Program-made: the position numbers and the translations under genes
Assembly: GCA_965200875.1 (NCBI GenBank)
Contig: OZ241456.1
Location: 1,312,001 to 1,376,000, forward strand
Origin: Bdellovibrionales bacterium
Lineage (GTDB): Bacteria; Bdellovibrionota; Bdellovibrionia; Bdellovibrionales; UBA1609
Length of the DNA stretch: 64,000 nt
Direction of reading: 5' to 3'
Shown: positions 8,283 to 57,224 of the stretch, piece by piece
Numbering within the stretch: position 1 is the stretch's first letter
Layout of the letters: each line of letters starts with the position of its first letter
The notes under the pieces: model-generated
What the model saw: the letters and a program-made list of their open reading frames with translations, nothing else
What the model was told of the DNA's origin: nothing
Databases searched by the model: none

Positions 8283-9189
8283 TAAACTTTAGCTTTTTCA
8301 AAAAAGTAAATCAACAGATTTCCCATATGGATACGGAGTAGTGGTCTCGGGACGATGATCAATATTCCATCCGTCTATACGCATGTTCAGTCGCAAATCC
8401 ATACTCTCCAATATTCTCTGAATTTTTCGCATGGATTCATCCTCTACCCTTTGAATGGATTTATGCCACAAACTAGGATGCTTAAGGAACCTTGGATCGG
8501 TAAAATCTATATCATTAGCTTGCCACCCATCTAAACGCGGATCCAAACGCAAACCCATGCTCTCCAATGCTTGCTTAATTCTCCGTCTAGACTCCTGATC
8601 AATAATCAAACTTTCTTGCAGGGTTTTATAATTAAAAATTCGCCAGAATGTCGGTTTAAAAGACACTCTCTGTTTTTGAACTAAGTCTCCAACAAAAACA
8701 ATATTGTTGGCAGAAAATTGATTTTGGATATAAATAGGAAAATCAACATCCTTCACACGCTTAAAGAGCCTTGGATCGGTAGGCTTTATATCATTAGCCT
8801 GCCACTCGAACGGATCCAAACGCATATCCAACCTCAGGCCAATGCTCTCCAATTTTTCCTTAATTTCCTGAACAGATTTCTCTCCTATATGAGGTATGCG
8901 CAAAAGCGTTGCAACAGGTTTTTCCGAACGCATTGACACCTTATCTATCTGGGCCAACAAGTCTCCTAAAACCACATTATCACGATTAAAGAAGGAAATT
9001 GGTAGAAATAGACCAGCAAGTATTCCATTTATGGTACGAGTGGAAAAATTCATATCTTTCATACGCTTTAAAAGCCTCGGGTCAGTAGGCTTTACTATAT
9101 CATTATCACGAGCATGATTTTCCTCCAAGAAAGCATCTTCACAGTGTTCTTGACCCCCAAAATTTGGCTACCTTCTAAAAGGAGGTAAA

Positions 9190-9576
9190 ATGGATAGATT
9201 TTCCAAAAAGATTTCAAAAAATCAAAGATTTTTGATACTTTCAGAGCATTTTCAAGGTGGTCTCAGTATTTCCGAATTATCACGGAAGTATCAGATTCAA
9301 GCCGCAACTATTTATCAATGGAGGAGAGAGAAAATGCGCAGAGAAAAGAAAGCAACAGGATTAGACCAAGAGGAATTGCTTTTAGAGATAAATCGTTTAA
9401 AGGTGGAGAACTCTCGTTTAAAGCATACTGTAGCTGATCAAGCATTGGATATCACCACTCTTAAGCAATGGAATGAGTTTATGAAAAAAAAGTGGAGGGA
9501 AGAAAAACTGAATTTGCAAAAGAGTTTATCATCCACTGCTCAGCGATCTGCTGTAAAAAAAGATTTTGTGAGTTAA
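9190..9576 (+). CDS. IS3-family transposase OrfA (HTH plus leucine zipper)
   Basis: SISELSRKYQIQAATIYQWRR HTH followed by a coiled coil; AGGAGG RBS. Confidence 0.92.
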   Translation: MDRFSKKISKNQRFLILSEHFQGGLSISELSRKYQIQAATIYQWRREKMRREKKATGLDQEELLLEINRLKVENSRLKHTVADQALDITTLKQWNEFMKKKWREEKLNLQKSLSSTAQRSAVKKDFVS

Positions 9577-10379
9577 TAGGGATTCATCCAAAGTCTCTTT
9601 ACAAAGTGAGTGAGAGGAGAAGTGTTAAGATGAAGATAAAGGATAAAGATAAGCAAATTTTATCAGGGATAAGAGCTGTGATAAAGGATCGTCCCACTTA
9701 TGGTTACAAGCGTGTAACGGCTCTTTACAACAAGGAGAGGGTTTTAAAGGGTTTAAGCAAGTATAATAAGAAGCGTATTTATCGTGTAATGAAAGAAAAT
9801 GGCCTTTTGTTACCCAAAGCTGTCAGCAGAAGGGAAGGGCATAAGAGTACAGGAAAAGTGATGACATTGTATTCCAATACGAGGTGGTGTTCTGATTGTT
9901 TTGAAATTCATTGTTTTAATGGAGAGAAGGTGTATGTTTCTTTTGTGTTAGACACATGTGACAGGGAGATTTTAAGCTTTACGGCGTCGTTAAAGCCTCT
10001 TTTATCAGAAGAAGACATACAGGGTTTGATGATTAGTGCTGTAGAAGGGCGATTTGATGCTTGTCGAACAAATAGAGAGATTGAATTTTTATCGGATCGA
10101 GGGAGTATTTACAGAGCGTATAATGTGCAGGTATTGGCCCGCCAGCTGGGTTTAAAGCCTTGTTTTACGAGGGCTTACAGTCCAGAGAGTAATGGTATGG
10201 CAGAGGCTTTTGTAAAGACAATAAAACGAGATTATGTGTATGTGAATGACTGCTCCTGTGCTGAAGACACTATGAAATTATTAAAAGAATGGATATATGA
10301 TTATAACCATAAAGCTCCCCATTCAGCACTTGGCATGAAGTCACCTGTGGAGTATATTAAATCAACACAAATGAGGTAG
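9492..10379 (+). CDS. IS3-family transposase OrfB (DDE), in the -1 frame relative to OrfA
   Basis: PTYGYKRV, RWCSDCFE, LSDRGSIY and SPESNGMAEAFVKTIKRDY, close to IS2 OrfB motifs. Confidence 0.95.
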   Translation: MEGRKTEFAKEFIIHCSAICCKKRFCELIGIHPKSLYKVSERRSVKMKIKDKDKQILSGIRAVIKDRPTYGYKRVTALYNKERVLKGLSKYNKKRIYRVMKENGLLLPKAVSRREGHKSTGKVMTLYSNTRWCSDCFEIHCFNGEKVYVSFVLDTCDREILSFTASLKPLLSEEDIQGLMISAVEGRFDACRTNREIEFLSDRGSIYRAYNVQVLARQLGLKPCFTRAYSPESNGMAEAFVKTIKRDYVYVNDCSCAEDTMKLLKEWIYDYNHKAPHSALGMKSPVEYIKSTQMR

Positions 10380-54847: not shown

Positions 54848-55435
54848 ATGAAATTGCTCAAAAAATCTTATAAAGTTTTCAAAAAATATTACTTTTTGTC
54901 CATTTTGATTTTCAGTGTGCTTCTGGGAACAGTATTATTTTATATTTCCGGGTTAAGGCATAAAGAAGTGAACATCTCTCCTGTTACAATATATTGTCTG
55001 GAAACAAAAGACGAAAAAATATGCAGAAGAAGAAATCTTATGGGGAAAGAGCTGAAAAATCGACACATAGAAAAAATTATTTTTACGCAATGTTTTTGCA
55101 AGGATCTGCGCCTGTTTAATGTAAAAGTGAATAATGCGGATTTCCGAGAAGGACATTTTGGCAGAGCTTCTTTCAGCAATGTTTCCCTTATAAGAACAAA
55201 CTTTTTTAAATCTTCTTTTTATGGAGCGATCTTGAAAGATGTTATTTTTGAAGATAGCAACTTAAGGGGTGTGGTTTTTAATTTTGCTGTTTTGCGGAAT
55301 GTGCAGTTTAAAAATGTGGACATGAGATCTGCTGTGTTTATTGGAACACGATTTGAAAATGTATCTTATGATAAAAATACAAAATGGCCTTTTTCCATAG
55401 AGCAACTTAAACAAATGAATTTGCATATACACTAA
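54848..55435 (+). CDS. Membrane-anchored pentapeptide-repeat protein
   Basis: N-terminal TM segment; xxFxx/xxLxx pentapeptides; YDKNTKWP cap. Confidence 0.82.
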   Translation: MKLLKKSYKVFKKYYFLSILIFSVLLGTVLFYISGLRHKEVNISPVTIYCLETKDEKICRRRNLMGKELKNRHIEKIIFTQCFCKDLRLFNVKVNNADFREGHFGRASFSNVSLIRTNFFKSSFYGAILKDVIFEDSNLRGVVFNFAVLRNVQFKNVDMRSAVFIGTRFENVSYDKNTKWPFSIEQLKQMNLHIH

Positions 55436-55454
55436 ACCTCACCCTGCAACCTCC

Positions 55455-57224
55455 CTATAAGAAATATCGAAGATTATATCTTTCGAGACGCACTCTTAGC
55501 TCTTGTGCTCCTATATCCTGTTCCCATTTCTGGAGTTTAGTCACGCTTATTACGGAAAAGCTTTGGAAATCCGTTCGGATTTTTTCCATCACCCTTTCTT
55601 TTCCTATGTATCTTTCCAAATACTCTATAACTTCTTTCAAATTACTTTTATTGGACCTTGAAAAAGCCAAAAGACTATTTTTTATCATTTGCTGGATAAC
55701 TGGCTTAGATGATTCTCCCAAATACCCTTCCAAATACTCTATCACCTCCTGCAACTTACTTTTATTGATTACAGAAAAACTATAGAGACTATTTTTTAGC
55801 ATTTGCTGGATAACTGGCTTAGATGATTCTCCCAAATACCTTTCCAAATACTCTATCACCTCCTGCAACTTACTTTTATTGATTATAGAAAAACCATAGA
55901 GACTATTTTTCATCATTTGTTGAACAGCTGGCTTAGATGATTCTCCCAAATACCTTTCCAAATACTCTACCACTTCTTGCAACTTACTTTTATTGGCTCT
56001 AGCAAAAGCCTTAAAATTATTTTTCATCATTTGTTGAACAGCTGGCTTAGATGAACCTCCCAAATACCCTTCCAAATACTCTACCACTTCTTGCAACTCA
56101 CTTTTATTGGACCTTGAAAAAGCCTCAAAATTATTTTTTAGCATTTGTTGAACAGCTGGCTTAGATGAACCTCCCAAATACTCTTCCAAATACTCTATCA
56201 CCTCTTTCAACTTACTTTTACTGGACCTTGAAAAAGCCCAAAAATTATTTTTTAGCATTTGTTGAACAGCTGGCTTAGATGAACCTCCCATATATTCTTC
56301 CAAATACTCTATCACCTCCTGCAACTTACTTTTACTGGACCTAGAAAAAGCCTCAAAATTATTTTTTAGCATTTGTTGAATAACTGGCTTAGATGATTCT
56401 CCTAAATACCCTTCTAAATACTCTATAACTTCTTTCAAATTACTTTTATTGGACCTTGAAAAAGCCTCAAAATTATTTTTTAGCATTTGTTGAATAACTA
56501 GCTTAGATGATTCTCCCAAATACCCTTCCAAATACTCTATCACCTCCTGCAACTTACTTTTATTGGACCTTGAAAAAGCCTCAAAATTATTTTTTAGCAT
56601 TTGTTGAATAACTGGCTTAGATGATTCTCCCATATATTCTTCCAAATACTCTATCACTTCCTGCAATTTATTTTTATTGGACCTAGAAAAAGCCCAAAGA
56701 TTATTTTTCATCATTTGCCGAATAACAGATTTACCTTCCCTTTCTCCACCAAAGTAAATATGCAAATACATAATCACTTTTCTTATCTCCTCCACATTCC
56801 CCTTATCAAAACCACTCAAACTCCTATTTAAACGCTGAGTGACTCCCTCAACCCCTATATATTCTTCATACAGGCTCACTCTATCTTTAAAATTTGCATA
56901 ACTCCTAATAAAATAAGAAGGAGTCTTGATTCTCTTTAGAGTTTGTTCCACTCCAATGCGCGCCTCCATTTCTGCCAAAAAACTTTTTGCATTTTCAGTG
57001 GTCCAATTTCCTTTGTTTAAATATGTGTTAATTTTTTGCTCCCAAACAGTTCCAAAATCCATTTCACTTTGCATCTTCTCCCTAGAAAAATTGATAAATA
57101 CTTCTCCGGGAGAGGAGAAAGCCAATACACAAGAAAAAGAAAAAGGAGCATAGCTGATGGAATAAACAAACATGATCAATAAGAAAAACCTGTGAAAAAT
57201 AGAAAAAAGAAGTATGGTTTTCAT
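55455..57224 (-). CDS. Exported tandem-repeat protein with 38-aa mTERF-like helical repeats
   Basis: Signal-like leader, CVLAF at 57117-57131, three degenerate N-cap repeats, nine near-identical repeats and degenerate C-cap repeats. Confidence 0.8.
   Translation of the reverse strand: MKTILLFSIFHRFFLLIMFVYSISYAPFSFSCVLAFSSPGEVFINFSREKMQSEMDFGTVWEQKINTYLNKGNWTTENAKSFLAEMEARIGVEQTLKRIKTPSYFIRSYANFKDRVSLYEEYIGVEGVTQRLNRSLSGFDKGNVEEIRKVIMYLHIYFGGEREGKSVIRQMMKNNLWAFSRSNKNKLQEVIEYLEEYMGESSKPVIQQMLKNNFEAFSRSNKSKLQEVIEYLEGYLGESSKLVIQQMLKNNFEAFSRSNKSNLKEVIEYLEGYLGESSKPVIQQMLKNNFEAFSRSSKSKLQEVIEYLEEYMGGSSKPAVQQMLKNNFWAFSRSSKSKLKEVIEYLEEYLGGSSKPAVQQMLKNNFEAFSRSNKSELQEVVEYLEGYLGGSSKPAVQQMMKNNFKAFARANKSKLQEVVEYLERYLGESSKPAVQQMMKNSLYGFSIINKSKLQEVIEYLERYLGESSKPVIQQMLKNSLYSFSVINKSKLQEVIEYLEGYLGESSKPVIQQMIKNSLLAFSRSNKSNLKEVIEYLERYIGKERVMEKIRTDFQSFSVISVTKLQKWEQDIGAQELRVRLERYNLRYFL
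55650..56675 (-). repeat. Nine coding 114-bp tandem repeats
   Basis: Consensus KSKLQEVIEYLEGYLGESSKPVIQQMLKN-NFEAFSRS-N; 9 x 114 = 1026 bp. Confidence 0.95.

Follow-up and report, generated by a model that had tools for sequence, protein, structure and literature searches.

In a 64,000-nucleotide stretch of a small Bdellovibrionales genome (C1:1312001-1376000, hereafter the window; the genome, G000, comprises 1.87 Mb at 37% GC, and other G numbers denote comparison genomes), several exported proteins carry a short cysteine-centred peptide, C-x-x-A-F, which we call the tag and which looks like an undescribed address label for delivery into prey or host cells. The tag lies either shortly after a hydrophobic leader (N-type) or close to the C-terminus (C-type). 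The features of the window that bear on it are listed below, with open reading frame abbreviated as ORF.

8298..9143, minus strand: body of an exported RNA-polymerase alpha-CTD-like protein, interrupted
9129..9143, minus strand: N-type tag CEDAF
9145..10400, plus strand: insertion sequence, presumably IS3-type from its ORF layout, with transposase ORFs 9190-9576 and 9492-10379; interrupts the alpha-CTD gene
10401..10481, minus strand: hydrophobic leader of the alpha-CTD gene with its start codon, running to the Cys codon of the tag and separated from the body by the insertion sequence
14549..15154, minus strand: leader-bearing pentapeptide-repeat protein, whose only Cys lies in its C-type tag
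14555..14569, minus strand: C-type tag CKTAF, with a single residue between it and the stop codon
28775..29722, plus strand: exported RelE-like protein with leader, tag, three-helix bundle and C-terminal RelE/HigB-fold domain (~29330-29707)
28964..28978, plus strand: N-type tag CQSAF, which starts a predicted helix; Cys and Phe invariant in 8/8 close homologs
55455..57224, minus strand: exported helical-repeat protein with ten 38-residue repeats, from a family in which the tag switches ends
57117..57131, minus strand: N-type tag CVLAF, with the sole Cys of the helical-repeat protein

The pentapeptides CEDAF, CQSAF and CVLAF lie where the preliminary description had placed them and, as it had also stated, a canonical lipobox precedes the Cys in none of the three (the preceding residues are GYA, SPF and SFS). 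Its account of a leader followed by the motif on all three genes was right about the motifs, but in the alpha-CTD gene the leader is not contiguous with CEDAF. This copy is interrupted, because the insertion sequence, with a 4-bp target duplication on the tag Cys codon, splits the leader (10401-10481) from the body (8298-9143). A second copy of the same insertion sequence lies at 11892-13144 of the window with its own 4-bp target duplication, and 8 left ends occur in the genome. The view that the other exported proteins of the window lack the motif proved wrong, as the pentapeptide-repeat gene at 14549-15154 ends in CKTAFL and a stop codon.

As regards the three proteins first described, the alpha-CTD assignment was borne out by Pfam (PF03118, E 2e-10) and the RelE-like assignment by fold only, while the mTERF-like one found no confirmation. 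The C-terminal domain of the RelE-like protein has a HigB fold (6af3_A, Z 8.5, root-mean-square deviation 2.9, 105 aligned; 7nbu_Y, Z 7.0), with Z scores that are middling and with HigB or HigBA in all of the best ten Foldseek rows, each at E > 0.1; the protein had no Pfam match. In its structure model, a helix is predicted to begin at the tag Cys, at a predicted local distance difference test score (pLDDT) of ~50-70, and the start of the gene is uncertain (ATG 28775 or later, near 28895). The helical-repeat protein had no match to Pfam mTERF, its Atlas leads stood at 0.78-0.81 (all Atlas leads being < 0.9), and its model (pLDDT 63) matched generic helical repeats, mTERF not being among the 50 fold matches.

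For the whole genome, a custom simple gene caller provided a set of 1661 genes, and leaders were called by a hydrophobicity rule in custom scripts, not by SignalP. CxxAF occurred 33 times among these genes as compared with 21 expected from composition; 13 of the positions follow a leader, 9 lie within the last 12 residues and 11 lie elsewhere. Two of the 13 N-terminal matches were dropped, one falling within the leader (C1:317787) and the other being a lipobox Cys (C1:477890), which left 11 N-type tags, to which the interrupted alpha-CTD gene and RNase III, with the variant CSEGF, are added. In the 28 residues past the hydrophobic stretch, CxxAF was present in 11 of 449 leader-bearing proteins; windows taken from the interior of these proteins contained it in 2 of 3582 cases (binomial p ~4e-15, a value that overstates the effect, given that the set includes paralogs and that three of its members had defined the motif).

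At the C-terminus, eight of the nine proteins with CxxAF are leader-bearing and one lies inside the window, and variants occur on four more leader-bearing genes (CQGVF, CGRVF, CRGAW and CRNLI). The motif was found at this end in 7 of 449 leader-bearing and 2 of 1212 leaderless genes (p 0.002), and a Cys in the last 13 residues was followed by xxAF in 7 of 74 cases, compared with 3 of 1499 interior Cys (Fisher p 4e-8), a result that is independent of the three genes first described. The commonest +3/+4 pair after a terminal Cys was AF (18 of 359, duplicates collapsed). The enrichment at the two ends rejects the chance origin that the preliminary description had allowed for, CxxAF being commoner than background. 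In total, ~25 genes from ~19 families are tagged, and the tag Cys is usually the sole Cys of the mature protein. The Cys of the C-type tags is 5th to 12th from the chain end, with 0-7 residues following the tag, and CaaX prenylation, where the Cys is fourth from the C-terminus, was rejected on this ground. When five genomes were searched with a DNA pattern for C-type tags, the counts for four of them resembled those of the reversed control, the reading frame not being resolvable, and a 34-column profile of leader and tag was too weak for a genome search (best E 0.04).

The N-type tags of this genome are carried by the HigB-fold protein, the alpha-CTD protein, RNase III, an SF2 helicase, an alpha/beta hydrolase, four ankyrin proteins, three helical-repeat proteins and one unknown, and the C-type tags by ankyrin, Sel1, TPR and pentapeptide repeats and several unknowns. 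Relatives carry the tag on kinase-like proteins, HEAT repeats, ankyrin repeats and many orphans, as well as on a glutamine-deamidase-like protein (E 8e-4, below the cut-off). The link with cytoplasm-acting domains was judged from individual tagged cases, not from the annotation of untagged proteins. The tagged RNase III is a duplicate, 44% identical to the leaderless housekeeping copy, and all seven of the extra RNase III genes read in congeners have a leader and the Cys (five strict, two with one extra residue). Likewise, all eight complete extra alpha-CTD genes in congeners have leader and tag, one with an identical CEDAF, in a count that leaves out one further locus and the fragments found on two short contigs of G007. 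Cytoplasmic enzymes such as RNase III and the alpha-CTD protein thus appear, from these sequences, to gain leader and tag together.

Several of the cargo proteins have further features. The tagged SF2 helicase (C1:554957-557938), which had no relatives in 40 genomes, ends in an array of ~45-residue repeats, and one stretch of the array recurs in the lipoprotein C1:1132477. The N-terminal part of a C-tagged orphan (C1:968883-970223) resembles an ADP-ribosyltransferase by eye; this protein had no Pfam, NCBIfam or PDB match and no relatives in 60 genomes, and PDB sequence searches were empty. Two C-tagged paralogs of 1250 residues (C1:251188-254952 and C1:1036122-1039895), 24% identical, contain hydrophobic helical segments and had no family match; they are possible pore or translocon candidates. 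Pentapeptide-repeat ORFs number 39 genome-wide, including those at 10755-11114, 15495-16232 and 54848-55435 of the window. Most of them bear a leader, and most have a two-Cys N-terminal cap (C-x-I-x-N-Y...H-x-C) and a common C-terminal cap in place of the tag.

In the RelE-like family, Cys and Phe were unchanged in 8 close homologs despite differing leaders. A profile search returned 108 proteins, and the set of 110 contained 81 full-length proteins with a leader; every one of these 81 has a Cys past the leader, in 65 as C-x-x-x-F/L and in 16 as looser variants, although the profile contained the tag columns and may favour tagged matches. In the 65, position +4 is always F or L by the definition of the count and +3 is mostly L, I, V, A or S; a lipobox was found in one, most tags lie 5-15 residues beyond the hydrophobic stretch, and no later Cys occurs in 55. 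A word-index search gave 5 matches for the RelE-like protein, none for the N-terminus of the helical-repeat protein and only itself for the alpha-CTD protein. Across families, leaders and flanks are unrelated and Cys and Phe/Leu are constant. These alignments point to a phylum consensus C-x-x-(hydrophobic)-F/L, with selection apparently on the Cys and Phe only. The motif as first proposed was sound as far as it went but incomplete, AF being a genus dialect of a tag that works at either end.

We found the tag in other members of Bdellovibrionota. The N-domain of three ankyrin proteins recurs in 12 genes from six other families of the phylum, 10 of which have the tag, the starts of 2 of the 12 being unreadable in the output. 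Blind samples contained tags in the congeners G003 and G009, one each in G124 and G021, and seven C-type tags and one N-type tag among 28 leader-bearing genes of G048. No clear tag was present in six samples of 40-80 kb from other orders or in the G056 sample. Targeted searches found a C-type tag in G031 (Bdellovibrio sp. HCB337) and the N-type CQNLM in G056; the absence from Bdellovibrio itself at which the blind samples had hinted was rejected on finding the tag in G031. From the pattern of blind samples and targeted searches, the tag is therefore phylum-wide but uneven. In G048 (C1:180001-200000), five C-tagged orphan genes lie within 11 kb (CEGLL, CFQLL, CERLL, CSNLL and CEQIL), four of them without any Pfam match and one with a weak match.

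The tag switches ends between homologs in two families. The helical-repeat family comprises 25 loci from 12 genomes, and 18 of its 21 full-length genes have the N-type tag; the remaining three homologs end in CKTAFQFS, CKQTFESP and CPAVFTN, and there is one Cys in all 21. In the kinase-like family (Pfam PI3_PI4_kinase), 13 homologs from 8 families include six with N-type tags, four with C-type tags (one a variant) and three long Cys-rich forms without a tag. The genomes in which the ends are switched are related, so that these counts do not represent independent events. A single tag, at one or the other free end, fits a signal that is read by a receptor and excludes a leader module with which the tag would spread.

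In summary, the tag is real, selected, widespread and apparently undescribed, and a targeting role is likely. We favour, with some reserve, the interpretation that C-x-x-(hydrophobic)-F/L is a second-step sorting signal, which would route effectors via a secretin machine to prey or host. A Sec-type leader would first carry the cargo across the inner membrane, as the leader sequences support, and would leave the single tag seen in each protein at a free end of the mature chain, whichever end that is. The tag may then form a short amphipathic helix, whose hydrophobic face would be bound by a periplasmic receptor that traps the lone Cys, most likely in a mixed disulfide and by analogy with Mia40 and its C-x-x-h-h signal (h, hydrophobic). 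At the contact with prey or host, a secretin machine, of type II secretion or of a Tad-type pilus system, could take the cargo over from the receptor, and the reducing cytoplasm of the target could release it for RNA cutting, transcription block or binding of target proteins. Four secretins occur in the genome, which by size and neighbours probably represent one type II, one type IVa and two Tad systems, together with 7 matches to the T2SSE ATPase family; the Sec leader and the machinery required for type II secretion or Tad substrates are thus both in the genome. A VKOR-type pathway of disulfide oxidation is present; DsbB was not found in the genome, nor was a flagellar/type III export gate (genome 94.5% complete). 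B. exovorus breaks down the DNA and protein of its prey in place, by way of a junction, which implies secreted effectors (10.1101/2023.10.25.563945). Delivery to the target cytoplasm would accord with this digestion in place and with the cargo. What stands of the targeting signal originally proposed is a portable, selected tag on Sec-exported, effector-like proteins, while delivery and the suggested targeting to organelles are at present conjectural.

A number of observations weigh against this interpretation. The 400-kb samples of G140 (125 leader-bearing genes) and G031 (150) and the 200-kb samples of G042 (59) and G134 (61) contained no clear tag, the frequency for G140 resting on ~11% of its genome. 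The tag is scarce in these members of a phylum in which secretin machines are general (PMC8067016 and PMC12428579). The preliminary description held that the cargo acts on DNA, RNA or RNA polymerase, which fits only ~4 of the 19 tagged families here, most others being protein-interaction repeats or unknown, and a congener has a tagged matrixin-type metalloprotease, an extracellular type of cargo. The tag is present in only 2 of the 39 pentapeptide-repeat ORFs and absent from two ankyrin proteins that bear a leader, and a leaderless KAP-family NTPase (C1:447171-448907) ends in CKSAFKN, by chance or as an exception. The RelE-like gene has no adjoining immunity or antitoxin gene. The tagged genes are scattered, with no shared neighbour and no conserved transport gene adjoining; no receptor or translocon was found, no search aimed at a Mia40-like CPC receptor having been made, and the aromatic +7 residue of the Mia40 signal is missing, +7 being mostly Q, E, K or S in the RelE-like homologs.

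The best-surviving alternative, which we consider improbable, is that the tag staples partner proteins together through a disulfide (N-type with C-type, or tag with tag) in AB-toxin-like complexes, with no transport receptor. In three genomes (G000 C1:954223-956840, G100 and G158), a C-tagged and an N-tagged gene overlap, and some of the tagged proteins bear another Cys at the end that lacks the tag. A complex prediction for the overlapping pair lends this weak support, with a score of 0.44 as compared with 0.00 for the best of three controls, in runs that agree in at least 24% of contacts, with a partner pLDDT of at least 42 and no interface given, and on a scale where only 18 of 157 solved complexes, but both of the passing mismatches, scored 0.60 or below. 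The prediction is silent on contact between the tags, and the small partner of the pair has its own conserved C-terminal Cys. Moreover, most tagged genes are single, at 6-140 kb from the next, G048 has seven C-type tags to one N-type tag, and end-switching within a family fits a common receptor better than fixed pairs of N with C. In the overlapping pair, the gene for the large C-tagged protein comes first and that for the small N-tagged protein second, near pilQ in G000, with no Pfam match.

It is also rather unlikely that some enzyme other than Lgt acylates the Cys (by S-acylation or a similar reaction) and that the cargo is thereby anchored to the outer membrane or to vesicles. A single invariant Cys beside hydrophobic residues at a chain end would suit such an anchor, and related phyla have Cys-based C-terminal anchors (MYXO-CTERM), but the C-type tags are followed by neither a transmembrane helix nor a basic tail, no NCBIfam sorting-signal model matched in 35 protein scans, and cargo such as RNase III, RelE, helicase and kinase proteins would be left unexplained. 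A spreading leader-plus-cap module, or a folding cap, without any targeting role has still less in its favour and is very unlikely. Paralogs with a common leader and tag do exist (three ankyrin and three helical-repeat genes), the tag opens a predicted helix and the genome has many insertion sequence copies (the 8 left ends above). However, the leaders and flanks are unrelated between families in which Cys and Phe/Leu are fixed, C-terminal copies cannot travel with a leader, and a cap is ill-suited to unrelated folds at either end. Ordinary or slightly non-canonical Lgt/LspA lipoproteins are largely refuted and hardly credible: an Lgt gene is present and the Cys follows the leader, where it could be residue +1 in the alpha-CTD gene, but a [LVI][ASTVI][GAS] lipobox precedes the Cys in 1 of 65 tagged RelE-like homologs and in none of the three window cases, and a +1 position in the mature chain does not fit the eight leader-bearing proteins tagged at the C-terminus, which are not possible Lgt substrates, so that the C-terminal copies and the end-switching exclude ordinary anchoring and with it the standard lipidation that the preliminary description had named as its refutation.

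Returning to the second-step sorting signal, a stronger form of it is a tentative proposal, which we hold to be less likely than the general one. The tag would mark a dedicated delivery pathway, in which a receptor takes a terminal C-x-x-h-F/L helix at either end through a redox-labile bond, and tens of effectors per genome would be injected into the target cytoplasm. Equally tentatively, these effectors could comprise mRNases, RNase III, RNA-polymerase decoys, kinases and repeat proteins crossing the junction between predator and target. If the dedicated pathway exists, the tag is a marker for the effector arsenal of a whole phylum, including reduced, non-motile, host-associated members. If type II secretion reads the tag, the pathway is a known one, yet so short a linear signal for it would still be of note. 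The tag yields a list of candidate effectors for the question of how enzymes of Bdellovibrio-like predators reach the prey cytoplasm, and its presence in the named chromosome of Bdellovibrio sp. HCB337 means that cultured relatives may be testable. The review PMC12428579 calls the role of pili in such predators unclear, and PMC12622784 calls secretion in B. bacteriovorus largely unexplored. No description of the tag was found in the literature searched, which did not extend to subscription journals and supplements, and no Pfam or NCBIfam model covers it in the tagged proteins scanned.

With its small size, its low GC content and the loss of motility, the genome is similar to those of sponge-associated Bdellovibrionota (PMC9944714). 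Elsewhere in the window, 16884-18311 gave a weak match to a terminase large-subunit ATPase (E 9e-5, below the cut-off), with no evident prophage; 35462-41544 and 57588-60025 contain GmrSD, type III-like and type I-like restriction-modification genes, and 49946-54754 holds a pair of large, Cys-rich, pilin-like genes.

Compared with known systems, the tag shares with the lipobox lipoprotein signal a conserved Cys soon past a Sec leader, but its Cys is usually several residues beyond the cleavage region, is followed by a fixed +3/+4 hydrophobic pair and occurs at C-termini as well. With MYXO-CTERM (TIGR03901), it has in common a C-terminal Cys tag on unrelated exported proteins of a predatory lineage; unlike MYXO-CTERM, it lacks a transmembrane helix, a basic cluster and a GC motif, is also found N-terminally, and its cargo is of cytoplasmic type. 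The RXLR (oomycete), PEXEL (Plasmodium) and Y/F/WxC (mildew) signals and the type IX C-terminal domain combine a Sec leader with a second signal, and the tag resembles them in this two-step logic and in a second signal common to unrelated effectors; it differs in sequence, in being Cys-centred and independent of the chain end, and in belonging to a bacterial predator. Among the cargo, the product of 28775-29722 has the same C-terminal HigB fold as the ribosome-dependent mRNases RelE and HigB, but it is exported, fused to a helical bundle and has no adjacent antitoxin, and its activity is a prediction only.

Mia40 recognises the ITS/MISS signal for targeting to the mitochondrial intermembrane space, a short amphipathic helix with the consensus CXX-hydrophobic-hydrophobic-XX-aromatic, and in that system a docking Cys is captured as a mixed disulfide after the first membrane crossing (PMC8061763). 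The tag matches the C-x-x-hydrophobic-hydrophobic start and, in the model of the RelE-like protein, may likewise be a short helix with the Cys at its start, a likeness that would extend to the capture of the Cys. Unlike the ITS/MISS signal, it has no +7 aromatic residue, contains one Cys in place of twin CX3C or CX9C motifs, and is bacterial, and we draw the comparison as a functional analogy only. A signal that is active at either end of a protein is unusual, and the tag departs from a defining feature of every known signal tested.

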